Shown piece after piece: positions 4,543 through 21,195 of a stretch of 38,173 nt of DNA (positions are counted from its first letter, which is position 1; each line of letters starts with the position of its first letter). Origin of the DNA: Candidatus Merdenecus merdavium (GTDB taxonomy: Bacteria; Bacillota; Clostridia; Lachnospirales; Lachnospiraceae); the NCBI GenBank assembly GCA_018715425.1, contig DVLR01000139.1:1-38173 (forward strand), given 5' to 3'. The notes below the pieces were generated by a model. The model was not told where the DNA came from, searched no databases, and saw only the letters and a program-made list of their open reading frames with translations. Made by a program: the position numbers and the translations under genes.

Positions 4543-5433
4543 GTGAGTTTTGTGCATAATTATCTTAGGGCAATAGGATTTAGTAAAATAAGAAACAAAA
4601 AGGAATTAGAGGCTATTTTAAAGGAAACCATAACCAAGTACGATGAAAAGAATATGGTATATTCTCATGAAGGTGCTAACTTTGCAGAAATCTCTAAGTC
4701 ATTTTTATTTGACGGAGGAATTACTGTTTGTGGAGAATACGATGAAGAAGATAATTTCGTTCCAGAATATTACTTTCCTTTTTTTAGAGGAACGGGAGTT
4801 TCTACAACGGAAGATGTGATTGTAGAGAGGCATGCTGGTAAGGAATCTTACGCTGGCGCATGTGATGATATTAGAGTGGGAGTCACCATGATTTTTTATT
4901 TGCAGAATGCTGCAGAATATAAAAAACAATTGTTTAAAGAAGATTTGCCGAAACAAAATACCTCGGTCACATTTTCGGCTCTTAGCACAGATGGTAAAAT
5001 ATTATTGCCAATAGCCAAAAACAAGGATTATAAGAAGGAAACTAAGAAAGCCTTAGAAATACGCAACAATCTAATTTCAGCGGCTAGAAAAGGCGATGAG
5101 GAGGCAATGGAGAGTCTTACCATAGAAGATATTGATACTTATTCTATGATATCAAGAAGAATTGCTACGGAAGATGTTTTTACCATTGTAGATACCTACT
5201 TTATGCCTTATGGAATGGAATGTGATCACTATAATGTCATGGGAGAGATTATCGACTATAATTTAGTAAAGAATACATATACAAATGAAAAGATATATCA
5301 GCTTTACCTTGAGTGCAACGATGTCTTTTTTGATGTTTGTATCAATGAAGAGGATCTTATGGGCAAACCAGAAGTAGGAAGACGATTTAAAGGTAATATA
5401 TGGTTGCAAGGATATATTAACTTTGAAAAATAA
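4543..5433 (+). CDS. Conserved hypothetical protein (possibly DUF3881-type; recalled from memory)
   Basis: 296-aa ORF with a GTG start 4 nt after GAAGTGAGG. The N-terminus HNYLRAIGFSKI..ELE.IL resembles clostridial DUF3881 proteins. No catalytic motif was recognised. Confidence 0.7.
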   Translation: MSFVHNYLRAIGFSKIRNKKELEAILKETITKYDEKNMVYSHEGANFAEISKSFLFDGGITVCGEYDEEDNFVPEYYFPFFRGTGVSTTEDVIVERHAGKESYAGACDDIRVGVTMIFYLQNAAEYKKQLFKEDLPKQNTSVTFSALSTDGKILLPIAKNKDYKKETKKALEIRNNLISAARKGDEEAMESLTIEDIDTYSMISRRIATEDVFTIVDTYFMPYGMECDHYNVMGEIIDYNLVKNTYTNEKIYQLYLECNDVFFDVCINEEDLMGKPEVGRRFKGNIWLQGYINFEK

Positions 5434-5463
5434 TCAGTTGATTTTTAATATTAGAAGTGTTAG

Positions 5464-5510
5464 AATAAATAGCGTAGGTTTTTTAATATAAGATTCCTAT
5501 GCTATTTATT
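5464..5510. terminator. 15-bp inverted repeat between the hypothetical gene and the tRNA
   Basis: AATAAATAGCGTAGG / CCTATGCTATTTATT (one G-U pair) with a 17-nt loop. No clean U-tract follows the stem. Confidence 0.45.
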
Positions 5511-5584
5511 ATATGGATGATACCACAACTTTCCCTGAGCAAAGGTGATGGTTAAATAGGAAAAATTGAATAAAATGAATCATT

Positions 5585-5656
5585 GTCCTCTTAGTAAAAT
5601 GGATATTACGAGACCCTCCTAAGGTTTAAGTGCAGGTTCGATTCCTGCAGGGGACG
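5585..5656 (+). tRNA. tRNA-Arg (anticodon CCU)
   Basis: Cloverleaf folded by hand. Acceptor stem GTCCTCT/AGGGGAC, D stem GTAA/TTAC with a GG loop, anticodon stem AGACC/GGTTT. Anticodon loop is CT-CCT-AA (U33 present, A37). T stem GCAGG/CCTGC with loop TTCGATT. Discriminator is G. CCA is not encoded. Confidence 0.85.
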
Positions 5657-5668
5657 CTAGAATATTCA

Positions 5669-5707
5669 CCGGAAACTCACATAAACACTGGGTTTTCGGT
5701 TTTTTTG
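5669..5707 (+). terminator. Rho-independent terminator after tRNA-Arg
   Basis: An 8-bp stem CCGGAAAC / GTTTTCGG (one G-U pair) with a 15-nt loop, followed by a T7 run. Confidence 0.7.
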
Positions 5708-5861
5708 TTTTTAGAGAAAATATTCAATTATCCAAAAAGGTTAGAATTTCTTGCTAAGAAAAGTTCAATTATTTACGAGTTTTTGAAAACAAACAGGCAA
5801 AGGGTTTGTTAAGAAATCTAGTTTTGATAACTGGTTGGATGGCGAAAAAGGAGAATAAATT

Positions 5862-6079
5862 ATGGCATCAATCGTTAGACGAAAACGAAGTATTGTGTTG
5901 TGTATCATTACACAGATGAAAAGGGAAAAGCGAGTGCTAAGAAAAGAGATATCGAAACTGTTGAGTCGACTCCTAAGAAGGAAGAACCAACAGAGGAGGA
6001 TACAGCAGCACTTCTCACCAAATTATTACAGAATCCTGAAACAGCCAGTCTGCTAAAAGCGTTGGCGAAGAATCTTTAA
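5862..6079 (+). pseudogene. Tyrosine integrase remnant (frameshift plus large internal deletion)
   Basis: An SD AAAGGAG precedes the ATG. MASIVRRKRS is followed, after a 1-nt frame slip at about 5890, by YCVVYHYTDEKGK. This is the typical N-terminus of Firmicutes ICE/phage integrases (MASI.KR..SY.V.Y.Y.D..GK). Only about 72 codons remain. The remnant ends in an acidic/helical tail (...AALLTKLLQNPETASLLKALAKNL) like the C-terminal tails of such integrases. Confidence 0.6.
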
Positions 6080-6095
6080 AATTGAACATTGTATG

Positions 6096-6131
6096 AAAAA
6101 ACCTCTGTGATCGGATTATCCGTACAGAGGT
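6096..6131 (-). terminator. Rho-independent terminator of the 135-aa gene
   Basis: On the minus strand, ACCTCTGT...ACAGAGGT forms an 8-bp stem (plus an inner CGG/CCG pairing). It is followed by TTTTTT. Confidence 0.7.
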
Positions 6132-6135
6132 CCTA

Positions 6136-6543
6136 TTATACGTCGTAACTCATTTTTTCTGGAATAGTTCCATCCTCTTGATATTTTTGAAATAGCCAAA
6201 ACAGTAAGTACCCTATCATAACATCCATTCCATTATCAAACGTTTTCCAGCAATTAGAACAGTTCGTTGTTTTTATTAGATCTGATTCAATCATTTTAGG
6301 ATAATCTACAGAAACAGGGATTCTTTTAGTTATGAGTTTCTTGCGACCACTTGGCATCTTCTTTATTTTTTCGTGTATCTCGGGTTCTATGAAACATTGC
6401 TTATCTATAACAATTTCACCATCATAAATATGCTCATAGTTTTTATATTTGTTTTCATTTAGATTGTATCCACCGTACAGATACATTACTGTTGAATCAT
6501 CTTCCAGAACCTTAACCGCCACTGCTCCGATACCACGACTCAT
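6136..6543 (-). CDS. Hypothetical protein (135 aa), no recognisable domain
   Basis: The ORF was trimmed to MSRGIG..., whose ATG lies 5 nt after GGAGGTG. It has its own terminator. No motif was recognised. Confidence 0.7.
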   Translation of the reverse strand: MSRGIGAVAVKVLEDDSTVMYLYGGYNLNENKYKNYEHIYDGEIVIDKQCFIEPEIHEKIKKMPSGRKKLITKRIPVSVDYPKMIESDLIKTTNCSNCWKTFDNGMDVMIGYLLFWLFQKYQEDGTIPEKMSYDV

Positions 6544-6912: not shown

Positions 6913-8388
6913 ATGTCAAAACAACTTACTTTAGGGATAACCAAGATTGGGGATTTACTCCTTGCAAATAGAATAACCAGAGATGAGCACAACAATCCGA
7001 TCCAAGGAGTGCAGTTAACTGTACCAGAGTATCAGCGACCTTACAAGTGGACCGCGAAAAATGCCAATCAGTTGTTGGATGATATTATCGGTGCGAAGAA
7101 TGAGAATAAGGAAGTGTATCGTATAGGTACGCTTATTCTGCATGTAGATGAGAAAAAAGATAACATTTACAATATTGTCGATGGACAGCAGAGGATAATA
7201 ACATTTACACTTCTTTTAAAAGCCATGGGGGAGACAGAAATTAATTTCTTAAAACAGGGTCTTTCCAACAATCAATACAATGCCTTCAATGTCCTGAATA
7301 ATTATCGTGGCTTTAAGAGGCGTGTGATGAACATGAAGGATGAAAAGGAGAAAGGGGATTTACTTGATTATATTAAGAATAATTGTGAGTTGATTGTTGT
7401 ATCTACAGGTGATATATCTGAGGCATTCCAGTTCTTTGATTCGCAGAATGCACGTGGAAAGAAATTGTATCCGCATGATCTTCTGAAAGCGTATCACTTG
7501 CGAGAGATGAATAATCTTGATGTTAGTGAAACGGAAAGGATTGTAAAGATTTGGGAAGATATGAATCAAAAGGATCTTGCAAATCTTTTCCAAGAGTATT
7601 TGTACCGTATGAAAGAATGGATTAAGGGTAATAGGTCATATAGATTAGATGAAAATAATATGAGAATGTTCAAGGGTGTTACCAAGAATAATAATTATCC
7701 GTATGCAAAGTTTTATAAGGGGGCATATGCGTATGCAGATTATCTGAATCAATCATCAGTTCCATTTGTAACGGGAATGGTTGAAATGAATCCATTTCAA
7801 ATAGACACAACTATTATTGCAGGTAAAACTTTTTTTGAGTATGCAAAGCACTATTTTGATGTCCTAGCGGATATCAGGAACAACGATAAATATGAAGGAT
7901 ATTTCATTAATGACAACGATATTGTAAAGACATTGAATAATAGGAAGTATCGCAACGGTGTTGGAAATGGTATTGCTAGAAAAATGTTTGATACGGTAAT
8001 ATTACTTTATGTAGATCGTTTTTGCTCGGTGCCCCCATCCAAAGTAGACTCGGAATTGTTAGATCAGTTTGTTGTGTATGCATTTGTTTGGGCATATTCT
8101 ATGCGTGCGCAGTACAAGAATGTAGGATGGCAGGTGGCTGAAAATTATATTATGGGTACTTCATCAAAAGGTGCGATAAACTCTTTTAACATCTACAAGG
8201 TTATTGCAGAAGCAGATTCTCCGATTGTGGTTTTAAATTGTTTATCTGATAAAGTGCAGTATTTACCTGATAGCAGGATTGTTGCAAATAAGGACGGTCT
8301 GGGAGATAAAGAGAATGGTGCGTACATAAATTATCTTGATCATTTTAAAGAAAATGGATTTTGGAAGGGAGATACGTCCAATGAGTAA
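6913..8388 (+). CDS. DUF262-family protein (GmrS-like ParB/Srx-fold NTPase domain), no nuclease domain recognised
   Basis: 491 aa with an SD GAAGGAG. DUF262 motifs are VPEYQRPYKW, IVDGQQRIITFTLLL and FFDSQNARGKKLYPHDLLKAYHL. The C-terminal region of about 300 aa has no motif I can name. Confidence 0.85.
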   Translation: MSKQLTLGITKIGDLLLANRITRDEHNNPIQGVQLTVPEYQRPYKWTAKNANQLLDDIIGAKNENKEVYRIGTLILHVDEKKDNIYNIVDGQQRIITFTLLLKAMGETEINFLKQGLSNNQYNAFNVLNNYRGFKRRVMNMKDEKEKGDLLDYIKNNCELIVVSTGDISEAFQFFDSQNARGKKLYPHDLLKAYHLREMNNLDVSETERIVKIWEDMNQKDLANLFQEYLYRMKEWIKGNRSYRLDENNMRMFKGVTKNNNYPYAKFYKGAYAYADYLNQSSVPFVTGMVEMNPFQIDTTIIAGKTFFEYAKHYFDVLADIRNNDKYEGYFINDNDIVKTLNNRKYRNGVGNGIARKMFDTVILLYVDRFCSVPPSKVDSELLDQFVVYAFVWAYSMRAQYKNVGWQVAENYIMGTSSKGAINSFNIYKVIAEADSPIVVLNCLSDKVQYLPDSRIVANKDGLGDKENGAYINYLDHFKENGFWKGDTSNE

Positions 8389-10402
8389 ACTACCACTTAG
8401 TGAGGAAACAATTGAAGAATTGTGCAATGGTTCAAAACATGTGACGTATGAAATCCCTATTTACCAGAGAAATTATGCATGGGAAAAAGATGAGATTTCC
8501 GCTTTGGTTCATGATGTATATGATGCTTTTTGCAAGAATGGACAGGCAAAGTATTATATTGGAACTTTAGTATCATATAAAAGAGATGATGATATCTATG
8601 AGGTGATTGATGGACAGCAACGACTCACAACAATAAACATCTTAATGCATGTTTTTGGCCAAAATGTAAAGAATAAGCTGACATATCGTGCAAGAAAGAA
8701 ATCTAATAAGACACTTCAAGGGATGGATAACTTTGATAGACTCGAAGAAAAAGATCAAGGAATTGTGAAAGGGCATGGTTTTGCAAAAGCAGCAATAGAA
8801 GAACTTAACTTCAACAACAGTACCAGAATTACGGAGGAGAATTTTATTCGCTTTTTCAAAGAAAAAGTATGCATTATCCATTATAAAGTGCCAAGGGATA
8901 TTGATCTGAATCATTACTTTGAAATTATGAATTCAAGAGGAGAGCAACTCGAAAAACATGAAATAGTGAAGGCTCGTCTTATAAGCGAATTTACAGAAGA
9001 AGAAGAGAAGATATCAATACGCAAATTCAATTACATCTGGGAATCCTGTAGCATGATGAATGTGTATGTTCAGCAGAAATGCAAGAATAAAGCTGTGTTT
9101 GGAACAGACTACAGCAGTTTTATCATTTATGACTTCGATGATATAGAAATGGATGAAGAAGAGCGAGAAGACGGTGAGATATCCATCGAAAAACTACTGG
9201 AAGAAGATTCTCCAGAAGGGGTTCGTGATCAGGATGATATAGCAGATACCTTTCAACCGATTATCGATTTTCCAAACTTTCTACTAATTGTGCTTAAAAT
9301 TACAAGGACCATGGAAGAAAAGAAATTTGTTCCAACAGAATTCAATCTAGACGATAAGGAATTGATTAATGAGTTTGATAAGCTGGACAATAGTTTGGTT
9401 AAGACATTTGCATTTAATCTAATAAAGGCAAAATATTTTTTGGACAATTATATCGTGCATCATTCTAATGAGGATGATGTTGAGGGGAATAATCCGTGGT
9501 TGCTGGAAAAATGGAAAAAAGAAGGAAAGAATGGATATAACAAGAACCTCGTAGAAGGGAATAAGAACATACAAGATAAACTGGTTCAGCTGCTTTCTAT
9601 GTTTGAAGTTTCTTTTACAGCTAGACAACGAAAAAACTATCTCTTTTATTGTTTATTATTTCTCTTCAAACAAGATAGATTTGATGCCAATGAATATTGT
9701 GCATTTGTTGAAAAGTTAGCGCAGAAGTATATGTATGATGTATATCTGGATTCAGGTGCGCTAAATGATAGGAATATACCAAAACCTGGTAGCTTCGATG
9801 AAGCGATTCTAATGAATGGTGAGCTTCAAGTGGAATGCAGTAAAAAAACAAGTACATTTTCAGAGGTCTATGGAGAGGGAACGAGTGTAAGTAATGGAAT
9901 TCCATTATTCGTATTTAATTATATGGATTATAAGATCTGGAAGAAATACGCAGAGGAGTTACGTGGTGAAAAAGTAAAAGAAGGATCTGCAGAACGTAAA
10001 ATATTCTTTGCGCATCTTGGATGTAGCGACTTCGGATTAGATGCCTTTAGAGCATTCTATTTTTCCAGAACCAGAAGAAGTTTGGAACATTATTATCCGC
10101 AAGCCAATGTAGGATTAAGTCATGATAGATTAGATGTTGCAAAGATTAATTGCTTTGGCAACTTTGCAATGATTGGCAGCGAGGCCAATAGTGCTGGATC
10201 TAATTGGAGTCCGATTGTAAAAGTCGGACGTTATCTGGATACTTCACGGAAGATTGCACCTATAAGTGTTGCATCACTTAAATTCATGGTGATGATGCAG
10301 ATGTGCAAGGATAATGAGAACATTAGAGATTCTGGAGAGGAGTGGAAATTTGAAGATATAAAGAAACACCAAGAGAAGATGGTTGCGCTGTTAATGGAGT
10401 AA
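8381..10402 (+). CDS. GmrSD-like protein (DUF262 + DUF1524 His-Me finger nuclease domain), putative type IV restriction enzyme
   Basis: 673 aa counted from the ATG at 8381, with an SD GGAAGGGAG 10 nt upstream. It overlaps the upstream stop by 8 nt (ATGAGTAA). N-terminal motifs are IPIYQRNYAW, VIDGQQRLTTINIL and IMNSRGEQLEKHEIVKARL. The C-terminal segment SLEHYYPQ....NCFGNFAMIGSEANSAGSNW is typical of DUF1524. Confidence 0.85.
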   Translation: MSKLPLSEETIEELCNGSKHVTYEIPIYQRNYAWEKDEISALVHDVYDAFCKNGQAKYYIGTLVSYKRDDDIYEVIDGQQRLTTINILMHVFGQNVKNKLTYRARKKSNKTLQGMDNFDRLEEKDQGIVKGHGFAKAAIEELNFNNSTRITEENFIRFFKEKVCIIHYKVPRDIDLNHYFEIMNSRGEQLEKHEIVKARLISEFTEEEEKISIRKFNYIWESCSMMNVYVQQKCKNKAVFGTDYSSFIIYDFDDIEMDEEEREDGEISIEKLLEEDSPEGVRDQDDIADTFQPIIDFPNFLLIVLKITRTMEEKKFVPTEFNLDDKELINEFDKLDNSLVKTFAFNLIKAKYFLDNYIVHHSNEDDVEGNNPWLLEKWKKEGKNGYNKNLVEGNKNIQDKLVQLLSMFEVSFTARQRKNYLFYCLLFLFKQDRFDANEYCAFVEKLAQKYMYDVYLDSGALNDRNIPKPGSFDEAILMNGELQVECSKKTSTFSEVYGEGTSVSNGIPLFVFNYMDYKIWKKYAEELRGEKVKEGSAERKIFFAHLGCSDFGLDAFRAFYFSRTRRSLEHYYPQANVGLSHDRLDVAKINCFGNFAMIGSEANSAGSNWSPIVKVGRYLDTSRKIAPISVASLKFMVMMQMCKDNENIRDSGEEWKFEDIKKHQEKMVALLME

Positions 10403-12233: not shown

Positions 12234-12779
12234 ATGACTAGAGAAGAGGCATGGAGTTTATTAAAGGAATATAATCAGGATGAATTTCACCTGCAGCATG
12301 GCCAAATCGTAGAGAAGACAATGATGTATTTTGCAGAAAAACTTGGATATGAGGAGGAAAAAGAATTTTGGGGAATTGTAGGATTACTCCACGATCTTGA
12401 TTTTGAAAAATATCCCAATCAGCATTGCATCAAAGAACAGGAAATCATGCGTGAAAGAGGAATTGATGAAAGAATCATTCACGCAACAGCGAGTCATGGA
12501 TACGCACTTACGGTAGATATCAAACCCGAGCATGAGATGGAAAAGGTGCTGTATGCAGTAGATGAACTAACTGGATTGATCGGTGCAGTTGTTCTGATGA
12601 GACCATCGAAAAGTGTACAGGATTTAGAGCTAAAATCTGTTAAGAAAAAATATAAGGCAAAAGGCTTTGCAGCTGGATGCGACAGGGAAGTAATCAAGCG
12701 CGGTGCTGATATGTTGGGGTGGTCGTTGGATGAATTGATTGTGCAGACAATTGATGCACTCAAGACATTTCAGGATTGA
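12234..12779 (+). CDS. HD-domain metal-dependent phosphohydrolase
   Basis: 181 aa with an SD GAAGGAGG and the HD signature GLLHDLDFEKYP. Confidence 0.8.
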   Translation: MTREEAWSLLKEYNQDEFHLQHGQIVEKTMMYFAEKLGYEEEKEFWGIVGLLHDLDFEKYPNQHCIKEQEIMRERGIDERIIHATASHGYALTVDIKPEHEMEKVLYAVDELTGLIGAVVLMRPSKSVQDLELKSVKKKYKAKGFAAGCDREVIKRGADMLGWSLDELIVQTIDALKTFQD

Positions 12780-12934
12780 TAGGAATAAAGATGTTCATCT
12801 CTACTATCCACTACTATCACTATCAGAGGTAGATTTTCCTGTTTACATTTTGGACAGTAGAGAGGGTAATTCATCAAAATGGTATCCTCTCTAATTTTAT
12901 CACGGATTTTATTTCCGCAAATAGGCCATAGTAT
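12770..12934 (-). pseudogene. Cysteine-rich KTR-domain gene remnant (mobile-element associated small protein)
   Basis: The minus strand reads ILWPICGNKIRDKIREDTILMNYPLYCPKCKQENL.. This matches the Cys_rich_KTR signature (CPxCGNKTR.KIREDT.L.NFPLYCPKCKQE). There is no start codon: a TAA lies 2 codons before the W. The first Cys of CPxC is replaced by W. It overlaps the HD gene 3' end by 10 nt. Confidence 0.6.
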
Positions 12935-13400
12935 TTATTTGGTTTTTATTTCGCTCCATTGTCTTGATAGATGCAATACTATCTTTCTCAACAGACAACT
13001 ATTTCTATGGTTTTTTCAAAAAATTCAAGTTATCCACTTTTATCCTTTCTTTTCTCATTTTTCAAGAAAGTTATCAACACTATAGGAGTCTGTTTCTCCC
13101 CGAATATTAATTTTGTGGATATTTTTTTCTGTCTTTTCTATCCCCTTTTTTCAATTTCCTGTACAAATACAGCTGCCGAAAGATATCTACTATCCAGGTA
13201 ATGGTTTTTATAGGTAGAGACATTGGATTGGAATAATAAACCTTCTCTCCACCAGCTTATCTCTTGAAATTTTTTTGCCAGTGTAAAGGTGTTGTCAAAT
13301 CTCAAAATGAAACCTTTGCTGGCTTCATTAGCGAAGCCGATGAAGCAATCTCCATTATGCGTATTGAATCCTCTCCATTTTATAGTAAAATAATCGAAAT
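12935..13400 (-). mobile_element. Non-coding debris, possibly frameshifted fragments of a Tn916-ORF7-like sigma/HTH gene
   Basis: Minus-strand frames give ..GFILRFDNTFTLAKKFQEIS.., ..KLVERRFIIPIQCLYL.. and ..YLSAAVFVQEIEKRG.. These resemble region-4 sigma-like proteins of Firmicutes conjugative elements but are broken across frames. The similarity is weak and recalled from memory. Confidence 0.3.
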
Positions 13401-13603
13401 ATTGAAAGACTAAAAAATAGAATTGCTTATGAAGGTATTACTAGATTCTTTCGTTTGGAAAATGAAAAAGTGAGGAATAAAATTTAAAAAAACGTATAAA
13501 AAATACTAAAACAGAGAAAAATATTGAAGAAATCATTGTTTTATGGTACCATTATAGTCATAATATGTAGTACAGGATGATAGATATAAGGAGAAGAATA
13601 AAG

Positions 13604-14998
13604 ATGAAAAGGCCTATTGTTCGTTTGTCATCATTACAATTGACGAATATAAAAAATGTAAAAAAAGGTATTATATATATGCCAAATACTACAAATAAAA
13701 TTTTATTAGCCGATAAAGCAGAAGTGCTGGGTATTTATGGACAAAATGGCTCAGGAAAAACTGCCATTGTTGATGCATTGTATTTTTTACAAAAAGTAAT
13801 GGTAGGAGCTAATCTTGATCATTCAATGGAAGATTACATTGATATGGATTCTAATAAGGCTGAAATTATGGCAGATTTCAATATTTTTATTGAAAACATA
13901 GTGTTTGAAGTTGGTTATAGACTTTATCTAAGCAGAGAAGAAAAAGAGGTTTTTATTAGTCGAGAAGTATTGAGTGTTGCAAAAAATGAAAATGGAAGTA
14001 GAACAAATAAGACAGCTTTTATGGACTATCAGAGAAAGTTAAAAGATTCTATTTTCAAACCAAAGAATAGGCTTGATGAAGTTGTTGAAGCGAATAAAGA
14101 AATAAAAACTGACTTGATTGTAGCACGTAAAATAGCTGAAAAAAGTAATTGTTCGTATATTTTTGGTGAAAGCAGTCGGGAAATTTTTTGTAGAGAATAT
14201 ACAAATGGTTTTAAACAATATTCCTTTATCATTTCTTCTTTGTTTGAATTTGCATTGAAAGACTTATTTGTAATCCGTAATACGCATTCAGGAGTAATTT
14301 CAGCCAATTTTGTCTTGCCTATGGCCTTTCGAATTGAAAATGATAGCGTTGGAGCCAAAGGAGATTTCACAGTGCCTTTGACAGAACCAATACTGGTTGA
14401 TGAAGAAAGAAAAAATATTCTGGAGACAATTGTAGAACAGATTAATATAGTCTTATATACAATTATTCCTGGTATTCAGGTAACTATTAAAAATTATGGA
14501 AAACAGTCATTGAACCATGGAGAACAGGGCTGGAGACTGGAATTAATGTCAAAGAGAGAGGGAATGAAAGAGATTCCAATCAGAATGGAGTCAGAGGGAA
14601 TTATCAAAATTATTTCCATTCTTAATGCACTAATACAGGCATTTGGGAATCCTTCAATTTGTCTAGTAATTGATGAACTTGATGCAGGAGTTTTTGAATA
14701 TATGTTGGGAGAATTGTTGGATATTTTCAAAAAAAGTGCAAAAGGACAATTGATTTTTACTTCCCATAATCTTCGTGCACTTGAAATGCTTGATAAGGAA
14801 AGTATTATGTTTTCCACTACGAACCCTAATAATCGTTATATTCATATGAAGAGTGTAAGAGAAAGTAATAATCTTCGCAATATGTATATTCGAAGCATTA
14901 CGCTTGGTGGTCAATCAGAAGAAATTTATGAAGAAACAGATAGTTTGAAGATTGCCAGAGCATTTAGAAAAGCGGGGCGAGGTGTTCGCAATGAGTAA
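13604..14998 (+). CDS. ABC-type ATPase (AAA_21/AAA_15-like; AbiLi/AriA-like)
   Basis: 464 aa counted from the ATG at 13604 (SD AAGGAG 10 nt upstream). Motifs are Walker A GIYGQNGSGKTAIVDAL, signature-like MESEGIIKI, Walker B CLVIDELDAGV and H-loop LIFTSHN. A long insertion lies between Walker A and the signature. Confidence 0.85.
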   Translation: MKRPIVRLSSLQLTNIKNVKKGIIYMPNTTNKILLADKAEVLGIYGQNGSGKTAIVDALYFLQKVMVGANLDHSMEDYIDMDSNKAEIMADFNIFIENIVFEVGYRLYLSREEKEVFISREVLSVAKNENGSRTNKTAFMDYQRKLKDSIFKPKNRLDEVVEANKEIKTDLIVARKIAEKSNCSYIFGESSREIFCREYTNGFKQYSFIISSLFEFALKDLFVIRNTHSGVISANFVLPMAFRIENDSVGAKGDFTVPLTEPILVDEERKNILETIVEQINIVLYTIIPGIQVTIKNYGKQSLNHGEQGWRLELMSKREGMKEIPIRMESEGIIKIISILNALIQAFGNPSICLVIDELDAGVFEYMLGELLDIFKKSAKGQLIFTSHNLRALEMLDKESIMFSTTNPNNRYIHMKSVRESNNLRNMYIRSITLGGQSEEIYEETDSLKIARAFRKAGRGVRNE

Positions 14999-15287
14999 GA
15001 AAAAAGTAATTGCAGTCATTGTAGAGGGACCTAGTGATGAGGCTGCATTGGGACCAATTTTGAAAGAGTACTTTTCGAGTGAAGAGATTCAGTTTGTAGT
15101 AGTTCATGGAGACATAACAACGAAAGATTATACTTCTGTAGATAATATACTTTCAAAGATCAATCATTTAATTGAATCAGTAAAACAAAAATACGGTTAT
15201 AATATAGATGATTTTATGAAAATTATACACATTACTGATATGGATGGCGTTTATTGTAATAATGCCATAGTAGAAGGAGATGTGTAA
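14991..15287 (+). CDS. TOPRIM-like (RloB/AbiLii-like) protein, N-terminal segment ending at an in-frame TAA
   Basis: 98 codons. The ATG overlaps the ATPase stop (ATGAGTAA), with an SD GAGGTG 6 nt upstream. It has the TOPRIM acidic motifs VIAVIVEGPSDE and IIHITDMDG. Confidence 0.75.
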   Translation: MSKKKVIAVIVEGPSDEAALGPILKEYFSSEEIQFVVVHGDITTKDYTSVDNILSKINHLIESVKQKYGYNIDDFMKIIHITDMDGVYCNNAIVEGDV

Positions 15288-15302
15288 GGAGTTCAGTATT
15301 AT

Positions 15303-15665
15303 TTGGATCGTATAGAAACGAAATATCCAGATTATTTAAATAGAAAACATACACAAAAAGCAAAAAATTTATTCAAATTATATTCTTCTGGAAAAATTAA
15401 GGGTGTCAGCTATAAAATATACTTTAATTCTTGTAATTTGGAGCATGTCCTTTTTAATGAATTGAAGGATTTTACAGATGATGAAAAAGAAGATCTGGCA
15501 GATGATTTTGCAGAAAAGTATGAAGGTAGGGTAGAGGAATTTATTGAATTTATATCCCAAGAAGATTTGATTGCCCCAGGTACTTTTAAACAAACTTGGA
15601 GATTTATTGAAAAGGAAAAACATTCATTAGAAAGATACACAAATATGCATTTGATCTTTAAGTAG
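15303..15665 (+). CDS. RloB-like protein, C-terminal segment (same frame as 14991-15287)
   Basis: 120 codons. The frame resumes 5 codons after the TAA, and only a TTG start is available. An AAGGAG (15286-15291) lies 11 nt upstream. The segment YKIYFNSCNLEHVLFNE resembles the RloB motif SNPCFE.WLLLH. Confidence 0.65.
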   Translation: MDRIETKYPDYLNRKHTQKAKNLFKLYSSGKIKGVSYKIYFNSCNLEHVLFNELKDFTDDEKEDLADDFAEKYEGRVEEFIEFISQEDLIAPGTFKQTWRFIEKEKHSLERYTNMHLIFK

Positions 15666-15748: not shown

Positions 15749-16051
15749 TTGAAATATATAAAGGACAAAAATTTAGTTAAACTGTTGTTGATTGTATTGC
15801 TGCTATGTATATTTTTATTTATTAGGTTAAGTAAGAAGAAAAATTATATAGATGGTGTAGTTTTAAAAAAAATTGAAAATGTTATCACGATACAATCGGA
15901 AGATGATTCTAAATTTACAATTACTATGGAAGAAATAAAGGATAAAAATGTAAAGGTAGGTGACATAGTAAGGGTGGAATATATTGGTGAAATTCTAGAA
16001 ACATCTCCCGCTAGAATCAATCATGTAAAAAACATCCACATAATTAAATAA
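15749..16051 (+). CDS. Small membrane-anchored protein (DUF3221-like?)
   Basis: The ORF was trimmed to a TTG lying 6 nt after GAGGTG, giving MKYIKDKNLVKLLLIVLLLCIFLF (a signal-anchor). An ATG start at 15731 is also possible. The tail ..VGDIVRVEYIGEILETSPARI.. resembles DUF3221. Confidence 0.55.
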   Translation: MKYIKDKNLVKLLLIVLLLCIFLFIRLSKKKNYIDGVVLKKIENVITIQSEDDSKFTITMEEIKDKNVKVGDIVRVEYIGEILETSPARINHVKNIHIIK

Positions 16052-16252: not shown

Positions 16253-18580
16253 TCATGAATTTCCTATTGCTTCGATGATAGACTGGTTTTTCCATGAATG
16301 AATAAGCAATAGAATCATCGAGCTTTCAAGGATAAGCATACCAACAACAAACAGGATAAAGGAAGTGATGGGAAATACGAATCCTCTGGACATACCTGAA
16401 TTTTTTAAGCATATACCAATTAGATATCCTCCTGGTACTCCGAAAACAACAGTGATTAGAATGGAAATTAAAGTATTAAAAAGTCCTTCCAGAGCAAAAG
16501 ATTGTTTCAATTGTTTATTCGTCATACCAATGGATTTTAGTATTCCCATTTCTTGTTTCTGAGCTAAAAAGTTTGTAATAGTAAGATTGATTTGGTTGAT
16601 CGCCGCAAATATCCATAAAACAGCTGATATTGCATATGCCAGTGCGAAGCCTGTACTATTAGCGGATTGATGTTCTGTGATAACATCTTGAATCGTTTGT
16701 AAGTAGACATCATTATTTCCAGAAATGAAACCTTTAAGTTTCTGTTCAACTATTTCGTAGCTTTCAGGTTTCTCCTGTATCTCTATTGCGTAAGTACAGT
16801 CATAGCCCGCAAGTTCTTTCATCATTTTTTCTGGCATTCTAAAGATATAACCACCCATTCCATCTCCATTTGAAGTAATCGCACTGATCTTGAAATCTTT
16901 TGTTATTATTGTTCCGTTGCTATGTTGAAAACTAAGGGACACGAAATCTCCAATTTGTGGATCCCAATGGTACACATCATAGATACGGTTAGGATCACTG
17001 ATAATTAACTCAGTTTCATCAGTGATACTTCCCGATAAAGTGGAAGAATTTAAAAAATCAATATCCTTTTCATTGTAGCCAAGTAACAAAGTGTTATCAT
17101 AAATATTATTGTCTGTAGAAAACTCAACTGGTAATGCAGAGTAGGAAAATATATTTATAATTTCCTCCATATTTTCAATACGTTTCACATAATCAGAAAA
17201 ATATTCTCTTTGTAAAAGAGTATTGATATCTTTACTGTTATCTTCCAAATCCACACTGATTTTAAAATCTCCGTATCTCATATCCCAATAACGAGCCATG
17301 CTCTTTGCGTTAAAAGAACTCTGGTAACTTGCGGAAAGAAAGAATATAACCCCACACAATCCCATTGATAAAATAGTCAATAGAGACTTGTTACGATTTC
17401 TAAAAAAACTAATTTTTGCTAAATATGCAGGTGAGATATGATGGTTTTTGTGTTTATGATAAGTTATAGTTTCTATTTGATTTTTCAAAGCGGAAATAGG
17501 TGAAGTGTTAGCTGCGATTTTTGCAGGTTTACGAATACTAATATAAACAAGAAGTATTCCAAAAAGGCATGATCCCAACAATGAAAGGATAAATGCGGAG
17601 ACAGACCAACCCTTTGGTTGTAAATAATAGCTAATCATTGTTCCAATCATACTTCCAATTAAAATGCCTGGAAATCCAAGGATATATCCTTGTTTGAGGA
17701 CCATCTTATAGATTTGCTTTTTACTTGCGCCTATTGTCCGTAGTTGTCCGAACTCTGTAACCTTATGTCCAACAGAAATATAGAAAATACTATAAATTAC
17801 AAGAGAAGCAGATAAAAAGAGGATAGCGGCGACTACACCATATACCGCATAATGATTAAATGAAAGATTTGCATTGGCATCGTAGTAATTGCTGACTGTC
17901 CAATCATTTAGTCCAGTATTTTCTGAAATTTGAGATAATATCTCTGTGGCTTCATCTTTAGTAAAAGTATCAGCGTTTTCAATCCAAACATATCCATTGA
18001 GTAAGTCATTTCCCTTCAATTCCTGGAATTTAGAAAAGGAAACGAAAACAGGATAAGCGGAGGTATTTTCATCATGGAAGATACCAACGATAGTATAGTC
18101 TTTCAAAGTTCCATCAATATTCAATGGAATGATAGTATTGATTTCTGGAGGATTATTTTCACTGGTAAAAAAGGTGTCTGTAACAGCAATTTCGTTTGAT
18201 TTTTCTGGATATTTTCCATTAAAGTTAGGAATAAAATGAAACATGGTATTATCGTAGTAAATCAAAGATAAATTTTTAGAGTTTTCTTGAACCGTTTTTA
18301 TATTATACGAAAGGCCAACATTTTTCACATTTTCTTCGGATAATATTTTTTCTTTACTGTCCAACGTAACATGAAAGAAAATTCCTTGATGTAAATCTTT
18401 GATTTCTGTTTGATTTTGTTGAATTATGTTTTGTACCGTGAGTAATGACATCATGATCATTGCAACGGCTACAATTATTGCCGAAAGGCAAAATAAGTTT
18501 TTCTTCTTGTCAAAGTGAATACTTTTTTGTGCTAATTTTTTGATTACAGCACTGGTATCATTTTCAAAAGCCCATATCAT
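16253..18580 (-). CDS. ABC transporter permease, FtsX family (MacB/BceB-like, two FtsX modules)
   Basis: 775 aa with an SD GAGGAGG. It has an N-terminal TM helix, a large extracytoplasmic region, and two clusters of TM helices with FtsX-type loops (..GQLRTIGASKKQIYKMV.., ..GILKSIGMTNKQLKQSF..). Confidence 0.9.
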   Translation of the reverse strand: MIWAFENDTSAVIKKLAQKSIHFDKKKNLFCLSAIIVAVAMIMMSLLTVQNIIQQNQTEIKDLHQGIFFHVTLDSKEKILSEENVKNVGLSYNIKTVQENSKNLSLIYYDNTMFHFIPNFNGKYPEKSNEIAVTDTFFTSENNPPEINTIIPLNIDGTLKDYTIVGIFHDENTSAYPVFVSFSKFQELKGNDLLNGYVWIENADTFTKDEATEILSQISENTGLNDWTVSNYYDANANLSFNHYAVYGVVAAILFLSASLVIYSIFYISVGHKVTEFGQLRTIGASKKQIYKMVLKQGYILGFPGILIGSMIGTMISYYLQPKGWSVSAFILSLLGSCLFGILLVYISIRKPAKIAANTSPISALKNQIETITYHKHKNHHISPAYLAKISFFRNRNKSLLTILSMGLCGVIFFLSASYQSSFNAKSMARYWDMRYGDFKISVDLEDNSKDINTLLQREYFSDYVKRIENMEEIINIFSYSALPVEFSTDNNIYDNTLLLGYNEKDIDFLNSSTLSGSITDETELIISDPNRIYDVYHWDPQIGDFVSLSFQHSNGTIITKDFKISAITSNGDGMGGYIFRMPEKMMKELAGYDCTYAIEIQEKPESYEIVEQKLKGFISGNNDVYLQTIQDVITEHQSANSTGFALAYAISAVLWIFAAINQINLTITNFLAQKQEMGILKSIGMTNKQLKQSFALEGLFNTLISILITVVFGVPGGYLIGICLKNSGMSRGFVFPITSFILFVVGMLILESSMILLLIHSWKNQSIIEAIGNS

Positions 18581-18594
18581 AGGGTGCTACCTCC

Positions 18595-19260
18595 TCAGTC
18601 TACAATCTTTCCGTCCTCAATACGAATCATACGATCTGCAAGGCAGGCAATATCGTTATTGTGAGTAATCATAACTACGGTTTGATGAAACTTTTTGCTG
18701 GTATGCTTGATAAGAGCCAATACTTCGGCACTGGTCCTGCTATCAAGATTGCCTGTCGGCTCGTCAGCAAGCACGATTTCCGGTTTGGTAATCAAGGCGC
18801 GAGCAATTGCCACACGCTGTTGCTGCCCACCAGAGAGGGTGTTTGGCATACTGTCTTGCTTATCTTCTAGTCCCAGAAGGTGTATGATTTCTCCCATAAA
18901 ATCTTGATCTACGGTATCGCCGTCTAGCTCTACTGGTAGAACGATGTTCTCATACACATTTAGAATTGGAACAAGGTTGTAATTCTGAAAGATAAATCCA
19001 ATGTTACGTCGGCGAAAAATGGTAAGTTGTTCATCGTTCTTCTTTGATAATTCTTCTCCATGGATAATCACGGTTCCATTGGTAGGGGTGTCCAGCCCGC
19101 CCATCATGTGAAGGAGGGTAGACTTTCCACTACCAGAGGTTCCAACAATGGATACAAACTCTCCGTCTTCTATGGAAAAGTTTACTCCATCAAGAGCACG
19201 GGTGATATTTGGTTTTATGCCATAATACTTTTTCAGATCAATAGTCTGTAAAATGCTCAT
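18595..19260 (-). CDS. ABC transporter ATP-binding protein (MacB/BceA type)
   Basis: 221 aa counted from the ATG at 19260 (SD AAAGGAG). Motifs are Walker [10 protein letters not shown], signature [15 protein letters not shown] and Walker [13 protein letters not shown]. Confidence 0.93.
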
Positions 19261-19314
19261 ATTCAAAACTCCTTTCAAAGTGTCTTGTATCTGGATAAAA
19301 TCATTGTAAAACCC

Positions 19315-19334
19315 AAATGTTACAGAAATGTCCG
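19315..19334 (-). promoter_or_regulatory. Candidate response-regulator box upstream of the ABC operon
   Basis: The minus strand reads CGGACATTTCTGTAACATTT, with two ACATTT cores 11 bp apart. It overlaps the -35 region of a TACAAT -10 (19303-19308). The same 11-mer and 9-mer recur at 21196-21217. Confidence 0.5.
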
Positions 19335-19433
19335 AGGTGCTAAAAATTCATTAAAAATTAGGATAAAGTGTTATGAAGCATGGATATGTAAAAAAATATG
19401 GCAGATAGCTCAAAAAAAACTGTCCTCCATATT

Positions 19434-20465
19434 TTACTTTAAAGGAAGCATAATAGAAAAAGAAGAACCATGACCAGGACTTGAAATGACTTTAATATAG
19501 CCACCCTGCCGTGTCACAATCTCACGGGAAAGATAAAGACCAATCCCAACGCCCTGTTGTTGGTGTACTTCTTCTTCACGGTAGAAACGTTGGAAGATAG
19601 AAGCCTGATTGTTTTCAGAGATACCTTTGCCAGTGTCTGTCACTTTGATTTCTACATACATTTCCCATGGCACTACTGATACAGAAATTTTACCGCCTGG
19701 GGGTGTGTACTTTACTCCATTGTCTAACAGATTAAAAAGGGCCTCCGCTGTCCATTTGCTGTCATGGGAAAGCATCAGATCTTCTGGACAGTCCACCGAG
19801 ACAGCAATTTCTTTTTTTTCAGCTTCATATACAATTCCGCTCATGGCTTGTGCTACTGTGTCAAATAAATAGCATGGTTTCCTTTCCAGTCGGATGATGC
19901 CTATTTCCAATCGGGAGGATTTTACAAGAGCTTGAAAGAGAAAATCTAGCTTATCTGCTTGCGCACGTATCCCCCGAATAAAATCGGTGCGTTCCCCTTC
20001 GGTTACTGCCCTTTCAAGGAGGGTGTCTGTCACCATCTTCAAGTTGCTCACTGGTATTTTTACTTGATGGGAAATATCTGATACAAGAGTTTGAAGCTCC
20101 TGCCGTTCTTCATCCACTCTGCCAAGATTTTCTTGCATGATCTTGTACAGACGGTACAGTCGGTGATTGATACGGGCAATCTGGGTTTCACTGTCCTCTG
20201 GATGTTTCGGTGCTTTATTCCCATTGATCATATGGTCGAGGGTCTGGCATAGATCAGAGGTAAACAACACTAGCCACTTTCCAAATACATGTGTCAGCGC
20301 AAAGATCCAGATAAAGGCGCAAAGGAGTAGTGCCCCGCTTACCAGTAGTACCACCGTTTGTTTTGTAATAAAAAATATCACAGCTGTGATCGCTAACATA
20401 GACAAGAACAGTCCTGCCATTATCCAACAAAATAGCTGCTTCACCGAGAGATTGTTGAATTTCAT
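19434..20465 (-). CDS. Sensor histidine kinase (intramembrane-sensing type)
   Basis: 343 aa. Two N-terminal TM helices are joined by a very short linker. It has the H-box DISHQVKIPVSNL and the N/G boxes NLLDNGVKYT and TDTGKGIS..GVGIGL. The start overlaps the RR stop (ATGA). Confidence 0.9.
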   Translation of the reverse strand: MKFNNLSVKQLFCWIMAGLFLSMLAITAVIFFITKQTVVLLVSGALLLCAFIWIFALTHVFGKWLVLFTSDLCQTLDHMINGNKAPKHPEDSETQIARINHRLYRLYKIMQENLGRVDEERQELQTLVSDISHQVKIPVSNLKMVTDTLLERAVTEGERTDFIRGIRAQADKLDFLFQALVKSSRLEIGIIRLERKPCYLFDTVAQAMSGIVYEAEKKEIAVSVDCPEDLMLSHDSKWTAEALFNLLDNGVKYTPPGGKISVSVVPWEMYVEIKVTDTGKGISENNQASIFQRFYREEEVHQQQGVGIGLYLSREIVTRQGGYIKVISSPGHGSSFSIMLPLK

Positions 20466-21154
20466 TTTATCTCACCTCCCGTCCATTGATACCCCATACC
20501 GTAAATGGTTTTAATGTAAGGGGGACCACCATCTGCTTCGATCTTGCCACGAATCCGGCTAATGGAAGTTGTCAGAGTGTGTTCGTCCACAAATTTCTCG
20601 TCAATATCCCACAGTTTTTCTAAAAGATGCCCACGGGTTAACACTTGTCGAGGATTTTTACGGAACAGATTTAACATTTTAAACTCCATTGTGGATAATA
20701 TTAAGGGATTGCCATTTAGGGTCGCAGTTTGTTCAGAAAAATCTAAGAATAGCCACCCATCGTCGTAAATATCCTTTGCTGGTTTATGGTGCTCTAGCAT
20801 GGAAAACATGGCTTTGATTTTTCGTTGCAAAGCCCCAATGACAAAGGGTTTTGTAATATAGTCCACCGCACCTACTTCATAGCCTCGTATCTGATCGTTC
20901 TCCTGATCGTTGGCGGTTAGGAAGATCACGATGGTATCTGGTTGCTGGGGCTTTATCTGCTGGCATAATTCAAAACCATTTCCATCTGGAAGGTTAATGT
21001 CTAGCAGTACTAAATCAAAATCCCGCTGATGGAGGGCTTCGGTGGCACTTTTGGCATTTAAGGAAGAGGTCACACTGTAACCGTCAGCGATGAGGTTATA
21101 GGATAATATCTTATTCAAAAAACTGTCATCCTCCACAATTAAAATCTGCTTCAT
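20462..21154 (-). CDS. OmpR/PhoB-family response regulator
   Basis: 230 aa counted from the ATG at 21154 (SD AGGAAG 8 nt upstream). It has a receiver domain (ILIVEDD...LVLLDINLPDGNG) and a winged-helix C-terminus (..LTTSISRIRGKIE..IKTIYGMGY). Confidence 0.93.
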   Translation of the reverse strand: MKQILIVEDDSFLNKILSYNLIADGYSVTSSLNAKSATEALHQRDFDLVLLDINLPDGNGFELCQQIKPQQPDTIVIFLTANDQENDQIRGYEVGAVDYITKPFVIGALQRKIKAMFSMLEHHKPAKDIYDDGWLFLDFSEQTATLNGNPLILSTMEFKMLNLFRKNPRQVLTRGHLLEKLWDIDEKFVDEHTLTTSISRIRGKIEADGGPPYIKTIYGMGYQWTGGEIK

Positions 21155-21195
21155 TTTTGTCACTTCCTTTGTTTTTTTTAGATAGTATAACAGGA

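Follow-up and report, generated by a model that had tools for sequence, protein, structure and literature searches.

A mobile two-gene cassette for an ABC-type ATPase and a TOPRIM-like protein, interrupted in a Lachnospiraceae contig

Contig DVLR01000139.1 of Candidatus Merdenecus merdavium (Lachnospiraceae; assembly GCA_018715425.1) was analyzed over its whole length of 38,173 nucleotides (nt), here called the window. Its forward strand carries two overlapping genes (Table 1). The first codes for an intact ABC/SMC-type ATPase of 464 amino acids (aa). The second has 224 codons and codes for a small TOPRIM-like protein, here called the effector, and in this copy it is interrupted by a premature stop codon. 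A first-pass annotation, made from the letters of the DNA, had read this pair as an AbiL/PARIS-like candidate defense cassette with an RloB-like effector. We have followed up this reading by using profile searches, structure prediction and a comparison of related loci.

Genes and features of the cassette

The start codon of the ATPase gene in homologues corresponds to ATG 13604, not to the upstream ATG 13577, and the gene ends with TAA at 14996-14998. The Walker A, signature-like, Walker B and H-loop motifs are all where the first-pass annotation had placed them, and so is a long insertion. Between Walker A and the signature lie about 275 residues, an insert that is itself highly conserved. 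Conservation of the motifs was judged on 21 homologues of 38-88% identity.

In Pfam, the ATPase passes AAA_21 (48.8 bits; cut-off, 27) and AAA_15 (32.4 bits; cut-off, 32.1), and its 39.2 bits on SMC_N are slightly below the cut-off of 40. The best PADLOC model is AbiLi (PDLC02335; E 3.3e-27, 93.4 bits), with a match that spans only positions 50-277 of 326. AbiLi is also the best PADLOC match for all 21 homologues (best E 1.8e-30). Ranked lower are two "AriA" models (9e-16 and 8.5e-10), followed by mad3, HEC-01A and PDC-M. The "AriA" models, with 304 and 373 positions, resemble the generic AAA_21 (304) and AAA_15 (374). No NCBIfam score is close to a cut-off, and in PHROGs the ATPase matches families of unknown function only. 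Sequence searches of the PDB with the single ATPase and with its profile (A4) gave nothing of use. Judged by its sequence, the protein is an ATPase of the ABC/SMC-Rad50-RecF type with the complete ABC catalytic set.

The overlap between the ATPase stop and the effector start had also been noted before and is real: its pattern, ATGAnTGA, is kept in 67 of the 70 complete junctions. This 8-nt overlap indicates that translation of the two genes is coupled. The TOPRIM-like Glu and DxD of the effector are likewise present as described, as is the NSCNLEH part of a segment that had been read as NSCNLEHVLF. In an alignment of 140 family members of 30-92% identity, the invariant residues are E12, G13, D41, D83, D85, G86, K166 and N218.

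The ratio of nonsynonymous to synonymous substitution rates (dN/dS) ranges from 0.03 to 0.09 in the ATPase gene and from 0.05 to 0.23 in the effector gene. Therefore, both genes are under strong purifying selection. The cassette is AT-rich, as had been observed, with a G+C content of 28-33%, compared with 35-43% across most of the window.

The region upstream of the ATPase contains a putative promoter, the hexamers of which, together with the ribosome-binding site (RBS), are invariant in 7 aligned loci. A generic promoter scan gave no enrichment over shuffled sequences. A small palindrome lies farther upstream. It reads CGAAT-A5-ATTCG in most relatives (L009-L016) and CGTAT-A5-ATACT in the window; its central change is compensated in the window and uncompensated in one relative (L010). 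The palindrome could be an operator, or merely a boundary of the mobile unit.

Table 1. Positions of the cassette, its parts and its neighbors in the window
Feature	Position	Strand	Remarks
Two-gene cassette	13476-15665	+	Self-contained unit: ATPase, effector and own 5' region
Cassette 5' region	13476-13603	+	Conserved; homology with closest cassettes
Small palindrome	13493-13508	+	~20 nt upstream of the putative -35
Putative promoter, -35 TTGAAG and TGG-TACCAT	13524-13529; 13544-13552	+	17-nt spacer
RBS of ATPase, AAGGAG	13588-13593	+	
ABC/SMC-type ATPase gene	13604-14998	+	464 aa; intact; AbiLi-like; would act as sensor and hold the effector
Walker A, GQNGSGKT	13739-13762	+	Residues 46-53; invariant in the 21 homologues
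ABC signature-like ESEG	14588-14599	+	Residues 329-332; E329, S330 and G332 invariant
Walker B, VIDELDAG	14666-14689	+	Residues 355-362; D357, E358, D360 and G362 invariant
H-loop, TSHN	14759-14770	+	Residues 386-389; invariant in the 21 homologues
RBS of effector, GAGGTG	14979-14984	+	6 nt upstream of the overlap
Stop/start overlap, ATGAGTAA	14991-14998	+	8 nt; translational coupling indicated
TOPRIM-like effector gene	14991-15665	+	224 codons; pseudogene here
VEGPSDE of effector	15024-15026 (Glu12)	+	
DMDG of effector	15237-15248	+	D83-x-D85-G86
Premature in-frame TAA	15285-15287	+	Codon 99; effector cut to 98 aa
AAGGAG and in-frame TTG	15286-15305	+	AAGGAG 15286-15291, TTG 15303 11 nt later; possible restart, speculative
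NSCNLEH of effector	15426-15446	+	Residues 146-152
C-terminal helical domain of effector		+	Carries invariant K166 and N218
Small membrane ORF	15749-16051	+	100 aa; N-terminal hydrophobic segment; weak DUF3221 match, E 9e-4
Tyrosine integrase remnant, KVLSNLKMKPLLASLAKPMK	13286-13345	+	Last 20 codons; tblastn 75% identity over 20 aa, E 0.015
"Cysteine-rich KTR" gene fragment	12835-12934	-	~76% identity
GmrSD_N/DUF262 genes, adjacent	6913-8388; 8336-10402	+	491 aa (with DUF7834) and 688 aa; ~3 kb upstream
Second integrase C-terminal tail, AALLTKLLQNPETASLLKALAKNL	5972-6076	+	Just after tRNA-Arg(CCT), 5585-5657

The premature stop at codon 99 of the effector gene replaces a GAG (Glu) found in the closest relatives. 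The same TAA is present in an ENA metagenome contig (L089) that is 100% identical over 13.4 kb, and in an independent Logan assembly of another run (L090) that is 99.978% identical over 9 kb. Because the codon is shared with this independent sample, it is a real allele and not an assembly error. An alternative genetic code was considered and ruled out: TAA is the commonest normal stop of the window, ending 12 of its 24 long open reading frames (ORFs) and the ATPase gene as well, and therefore recoding does not explain codon 99. Among the other loci, stops interrupt the effector in 2 of 87 and the ATPase in 1 of 86. After the stop, dN/dS on the window branch, measured against the closest relatives, is 0.06-0.11, and all family-invariant residues are still intact. 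Given the GAG in relatives, the rarity of stops, the low dN/dS and the retained residues, the stop is a recent, lineage-specific knock-out of an otherwise strongly constrained gene. What is left, a stub of 98 aa, is without helix 3 and strand 4 of the fold described below, the NSCNLEH segment and the entire C-terminal domain. The window effector is thus a pseudogene, a status that the first-pass annotation, which touched on the TAA in passing, had underplayed.

We also considered whether the interrupted gene might still function, either because its two halves are made separately and reassemble or because the TAA is read through. The AAGGAG that begins within the stop codon stands 11 nt ahead of an in-frame TTG, from which a restart is predicted to yield a 120-aa C-terminal fragment; moreover, selection is not relaxed after the stop, and every invariant residue is retained. 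However, the AAGGAG is merely ancestral Glu-Gly coding sequence, and a recent mutation explains the low dN/dS equally well. The split also falls within the TOPRIM core, ahead of helix 3 and strand 4, and loses residues 99-104, including a nearly invariant Tyr103. Furthermore, the codon is the normal stop of the window, and 85 of the 87 loci have intact single-chain genes. A restart at TTG 15303 is unlikely to restore effector function, and a working effector by either route seems very improbable to us. Most likely, the window copy is a disarmed remnant, an intact ATPase beside a dead effector, inside a decayed integrative element. It contributes a naturally disarmed allele that is useful as a negative control, not a working system.

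Family and fold of the effector

The effector does not prove to be RloB-like. RloB (PF13707) and AbiLii gave no match to the window protein at E <= 10, to the 140 members at E <= 0.01 or to the family consensus, and DUF4435 (PF14491)/AriB matched neither the window effector nor any of the 140 members. Of the 24,736 Pfam models compared with the N-terminal 98 residues, Toprim, OLD-like_TOPRIM and DUF4276 rank highest, all of them sub-threshold. Scores of the window effector are 20.6 bits on Toprim (PF01751; cut-off, 23.1), 18.7 on OLD-like_TOPRIM (PF20469; cut-off, 23.2) and 16.6 on DUF4276 (PF14103; cut-off, 30.2). Of the 140 members, 15 match DUF4276, 9 match Toprim and 3 match OLD-like_TOPRIM, and none matches RloB or DUF4435; the family consensus reaches 21.9 bits on DUF4276. 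In PADLOC, weak matches of the family are to mad4 in 9 members (best 2.4e-5), HEC-01B and PDC-M38B. PHROGs returned nothing for the effector, and two effector profiles (A2 and A3) found chance matches only when searched by sequence against the PDB (chorismate mutase and an integrin I-domain). The profile and PADLOC searches that had been proposed as a check therefore give recognized families (AAA_21, AAA_15 and AbiLi) for the ATPase, and for the effector only sub-threshold matches of Toprim type.

Database names for family members vary. One Bacillus member is labeled "DUF4276 family protein" in UniRef. A member from a Lachnospiraceae metagenome-assembled genome (P0062) is named "Hsp33 family molecular chaperone HslO" in NCBI/nr, which is almost certainly a misannotation.

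An earlier AlphaFold model, built from 24 close sequences, had a predicted local distance difference test score (pLDDT) of 60 and was discarded. The AlphaFold2 model built from 140 diverse sequences has a pLDDT of 96.1 and a predicted template modeling score (pTM) of 0.92. Along the chain it has the order b1(6-11)-a1-b2(32-37)-a2-b3(75-83)-three short strands-a3-b4(139-146), followed by five helices. Glu12 comes directly after b1, and DxDG directly after b3. These are the positions of the Toprim catalytic residues in RNase M5, OLD, DUF4276 and RloB, and DUF4276 and RloB are themselves members of the Toprim superfamily (PMC12065111). In the model, then, the core of the effector appears to follow the TOPRIM order b1-a1-b2-a2-b3-a3-b4, with the conserved Glu and DxD. 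Structure prediction, another check that had been proposed, thus yields elements in TOPRIM order and no significant fold match. The best PDB match, 8ux9_A (PARIS; 306 aa, the size of AriB), is weak, with E 0.019, a probability of 0.47 and a TM-score of 0.19 over 111 aligned columns. The best BFVD match has E 0.004 and is nothing meaningful; TM-scores in the PDB and BFVD are below 0.3. A protein search with the TOPRIM region of P2 Old, made for a comparison profile, gave 4 fragments only and was of no use.

From these results, the effector is very likely a TOPRIM-superfamily protein. Its family, which no curated model covers, would be nearest to proteins of the DUF4276/Mad4 type, and its C-terminal domain would be its own. 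It is conceivable that this small protein is not a nuclease, and instead is a TOPRIM- or Rossmann-like regulator that binds metal or nucleotides, with the ATPase as the real effector. Such a role would fit the finding that no nuclease family or structure is matched with statistical significance, and that no relative of the C-terminal helical domain is recognized. However, the invariant Glu and DxDG lie exactly at TOPRIM catalytic positions and are accompanied by an invariant Lys, all of the weak matches are to TOPRIM families of the nuclease type, and related ATPases have nucleases as their partners (PMC11464382; bioRxiv 10.1101/2024.01.29.577857). We therefore regard a non-nuclease role as very improbable.

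Distribution, mobility and genomic context

Homologues of the effector are numerous and patchily distributed. A collection of 5.8 billion proteins contains 811, all of ~224-226 aa, uninterrupted and without a precomputed Pfam domain. An exhaustive search with the effector profile yielded 1622 clusters (at 50% identity) at E <= 1e-3, and 382 of them reach E <= 1e-30. When one genome per species was scanned, at least 585 matches were found among 185,579 species genomes, mainly in Lachnospiraceae (Faecalimonas, Blautia, Mediterraneibacter, Lachnoclostridium, Hungatella, Enterocloster and Lachnoanaerobaculum). We examined loci from 80 species genomes, mostly of this family, and wherever a fetched locus includes upstream sequence, the gene immediately upstream of the effector is that of the ATPase. 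More distant pairs, with ~31-41% effector identity, reside on plasmids of Bacillus thuringiensis, B. mycoides, Lysinibacillus and Paenibacillus; others are on plasmids of Ruminococcus albus and Cetobacterium and on the Clostridioides phage-plasmid pCD1602_4. RefSeq names the distant effectors "hypothetical protein".

DNA homology to the closest relatives (~84-86% identity) starts at 13475-13481, takes in ~130 nt upstream of the ATPase with the plausible promoter and ends at 15663, at the effector stop. In other genomes, the neighbors change each time, and 134 flanking ORFs fall into 108 unrelated clusters. The small membrane ORF downstream of the effector had been suggested as a possible part of the cassette. 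None of the other 87 loci has a homologue of it, and it lies outside the module. Because of the limits of homology, the varied neighbors and the unshared membrane ORF, the module consists of exactly two genes and their own 5' region, mobile as a unit. Of the synteny that had been put forward as a check, the conservation of the pair across genomes held, and a conserved membrane ORF did not. The first-pass annotation had named a housekeeping family with conserved neighbors as evidence that would contradict its reading, and this was not seen.

Two loci show unusual arrangements. In Lachnospiraceae bacterium EP-SM-12S-S03, two diverged whole cassettes (L013 and L015) are located ~6 kb apart (JAJBSL010000012.1). 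The megaplasmid of [Eubacterium] eligens ATCC 27750 (L007; NC_012780.1) has an orphan ATPase of 38% identity (locus coordinates 5001-6401); an IS256 transposase gene lies ~870 nt upstream of it, and downstream an effector ORF is absent. After the window, it is the second example of an ATPase kept while the effector was lost.

The distribution also bears on a possible housekeeping role in DNA repair, comparable to that of RecF with RecR (a TOPRIM protein) or of SbcCD. The best PDB match of the ATPase profile by sequence is RecF (2o5v; E 1.5e-4), and weak NCBIfam matches to recF, RecN and Rad50, the SMC_N score given above and a RefSeq "double-strand break repair" GO term on the E. eligens homologue point the same way. 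However, RecF-type scores are far under their cut-offs (23.6 vs 172 bits), the genomic context differs in every species, and the pair is found on plasmids and a phage-plasmid and twice within 6 kb of one genome. Nonsense alleles and the orphan ATPase indicate, moreover, that the pair is dispensable. Because the distribution is patchy and mobile, a repair role of this kind is highly improbable.

Remains of mobile elements adjoin the cassette in the window. In the closest relatives, Faecalimonas umbilicata (L009) and L015, a 477-aa tyrosine integrase ends ~205 nt ahead of the ATPase start, and this intact integrase matches the PDB integrases 3nkh and Tn1549 Int. The integrase remnant of the window is at the position equivalent to that of the intact integrase in L009, outside the module. 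The KTR fragment has homologues on pTet of Campylobacter and on Enterococcus and Streptococcus conjugative elements; genes of this kind characterize conjugative elements of the Tn916/pTet type. A truncated ORF at 12770-12877 (minus strand) begins MMNYPLYCPKCKQE. The integrase tail and the KTR fragment show that the mobile-element debris reported earlier was correctly recognized. Probably, an integrative element, since decayed, brought the cassette in as cargo at its integrase end. The two integrase tails suggest repeated integration and decay of related elements at tRNA-Arg. Flanking direct or inverted repeats, sought as insertion ends, were AT-rich chance matches only, and an exact look-up of the ATPase and a neighboring 181-aa protein, made to find cassette-free strains, returned the same locus only.

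Two further gene groups in the window were noted. The adjacent GmrSD_N/DUF262 genes are probably a separate defense-type module of the GmrSD/BrxU kind. They lie in a stretch downstream of tRNA-Arg that resembles a decayed genomic island and is shared with the cassette. Assignment of these genes and the ATPase to Menshen was rejected: unrelated genes stand between them, the ATPase has no DUF3696 match in the Pfam scan, and no other cassette locus has the DUF262 genes. On the other side of the cassette, 16253-21163 (minus strand) codes for an FtsX-type permease of 775 aa and an ABC ATPase, along with a histidine kinase and a response regulator of the OmpR type. The arrangement is that of a module for the sensing and efflux of peptide antibiotics (bacitracin-type); it is unrelated to the cassette.

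Probable role and comparison with known systems

Pairs in which an ABC ATPase is combined with a TOPRIM protein (PARIS, AbiL, RloAB, HEC-01 and MADS3-4) are a recurrent design in bacterial immunity. To our knowledge, PARIS is the only one of them that is understood mechanistically. In PARIS, a hexamer of AriA holds AriB and frees it on sensing a phage protein, and AriB then cleaves tRNA-Lys (PMC11464382). We think it likely that the cassette is a horizontally mobile module of two genes, an ABC-ATPase sensor and a TOPRIM-nuclease effector, that follows the logic of AbiL, PARIS, HEC-01 and NetFlax. By analogy with PARIS and NetFlax, an oligomer of the ATPase would keep a metal-dependent nuclease inactive. 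A cue from a phage or mobile element, sensed through the insert of the ATPase and with ATP binding or hydrolysis, would free or activate the nuclease. The nuclease might then cut RNA (tRNA or rRNA) or DNA, and growth would stop.

Several observations weigh against this interpretation. The effector passes no model of Pfam, NCBIfam, PHROGs or PADLOC, all its TOPRIM-type matches falling below threshold, and a Foldseek search of its model against the PDB and BFVD gave no match with E < 1e-3. An hhalign comparison of the family profiles with the single P2 Old sequence, a low-power test, aligned only the Glu motif, with a probability of 1.3%. No clear defense-island enrichment is seen in the 25 commonest of 139 flanking families, and HEC-01, which has the same architecture, gave no phage protection in E. 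coli (bioRxiv 10.1101/2024.01.29.577857). Because the effector is broken in the window, nothing can be inferred about activity there. The defense role is a prediction from homology.

The serious rival, which also tells against a defense role, is that the cassette is purely a toxin-antitoxin (addiction) module, with the TOPRIM protein as toxin and the ATPase as antitoxin, that stabilizes integrative elements and plasmids without defending against phages. NetFlax AAA ATPases neutralize TOPRIM_OLD toxins in E. coli (PMC10440598), an integrase adjoins the cassette in the closest relatives, some copies are plasmid-borne, and a defense-island signal is missing. Loss of the toxin with the ATPase kept, as in the window and in E. 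eligens, is the expected path of toxin-antitoxin decay. Stops, however, show no clear excess in the effector (2 of 87) over the ATPase (1 of 86), and most copies are among chromosomal housekeeping genes, with no mobile element in their 4-kb flanks. In ~75 genomes the flanking families are mostly housekeeping, with ABC_tran accounting for 6, AAA_21 for 5 and Phage_integrase for 4 of 134. An ATPase of 464 aa that has a conserved insert of 275 residues is also more elaborate than one would expect of a mere antitoxin, and toxin-antitoxin behavior and defense are not exclusive in PARIS (PMC11464382). A pure addiction role is thus the less likely explanation, although it deserves to be taken seriously, and we prefer the sensor and nuclease module. 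The repeated loss of the effector with the ATPase retained may hint at an independent function of the ATPase.

That these cassettes amount to a distinct ATPase-TOPRIM system, immune or toxin-antitoxin, which is very widespread (at least 1600 clusters at 50% identity) and abundant in Lachnospiraceae of the human gut, is a proposal that we make tentatively and with some doubt. The cassette would not be called by the PADLOC (v2.0.0), Pfam or NCBIfam models searched. The family is apparently common in human-gut Firmicutes and would escape the defense and domain libraries that were searched. Neither solved structures nor predicted structures of viral proteins include a significant match to the C-terminal helical domain of the effector. 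Because this domain is joined to a minimal TOPRIM core, the target or the mode of activation is possibly unlike that of AriB. The family is easy to test, because its structure model is of high confidence and its candidate catalytic residues are clear.

The cassette most resembles AbiL and PARIS in its logic. AbiL of Lactococcus lactis pND861 is likewise bicistronic, with the ATPase first and a small TOPRIM-type protein second, and the ATPase described here matches AbiLi. The effector, in contrast, has a C-terminal helical domain of its own, and none of the 140 family members matches AbiLii/RloB. With 224 aa, it is also shorter than AbiLii, which has ~300 aa. The mechanism of AbiL is still unknown according to a 2026 review (PMC13064643). 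PARIS (AriA with AriB, a DUF4435/TOPRIM tRNA nuclease; 8UX9) shares with the cassette a separate ABC ATPase and TOPRIM protein, an insert in the ATPase and a sensor/effector logic like that of toxin-antitoxin systems. However, the effector does not match the DUF4435/AriB profile, and AriA (8UX9) was not found in the PDB by the ATPase profile. Because neither the RloB/AbiLii nor the DUF4435/AriB profiles match, the cassette, as judged by profile models (which were used for the likenesses to AbiLi/AbiLii, RloB, DUF4276 and AriB), appears to share the logic of AbiL and PARIS and to be a member of neither. The AbiL/PARIS-like label of the first-pass annotation therefore stands for the coupled ATPase/TOPRIM-like logic and the AbiLi match, and falls for the effector.

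Other systems are less close. For MAD3-MAD4 of MADS, the PADLOC mad3 model matches all 21 ATPases (best 4e-15), but the NCBIfam MAD3 equivalog scores 24.6 bits for the ATPase against a cut-off of 420. Matches of the effector family to DUF4276 are sub-threshold and span only the N-terminal half of that model, and no methyltransferase, other MADS genes or conserved neighbors accompany the cassettes. The PADLOC candidates HEC-01 and PDC-M38 have the same architecture of an ABC ATPase and a separate TOPRIM protein. The ATPase matches HEC-01A partially (8e-12) and the effector family matches HEC-01B at 3e-4 to 1e-2; no Hma genes were seen nearby, and the cassette does not sit within Hma or any other defense system. 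Matches to PDC-M38A (2e-7) and PDC-M38B (4e-4) are partial and weak, and the PDC-M38B model, with 219 positions, is of similar length to the effector.

The NetFlax AAA(D29):TOPRIM_OLD pairs of C. algidicarnis (D44) and S. agalactiae (D60), with sequences WP_104409920.1 and WP_000010056.1, were compared by description only. They also combine an ATPase with a small TOPRIM-type protein in Firmicutes, and both the toxicity of their small TOPRIM_OLD proteins and its neutralization by the cognate AAA ATPases have been validated in E. coli (PMC10440598). Unlike the effector family, D44 is described as RloB-like, and no Streptococcus member is among the effector relatives retrieved. OLD nucleases (P2 Old of class 1 and GajA of class 2) likewise have an ABC ATPase together with a TOPRIM domain that carries Glu and DxD, but fuse them in one polypeptide, whereas the cassette has two genes. 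To this known design principle, the family adds a large, well-conserved branch, with an AbiLi-like ATPase and an effector that is neither RloB nor DUF4435, and it provides a testable handle on the mechanism of AbiL-type pairs.

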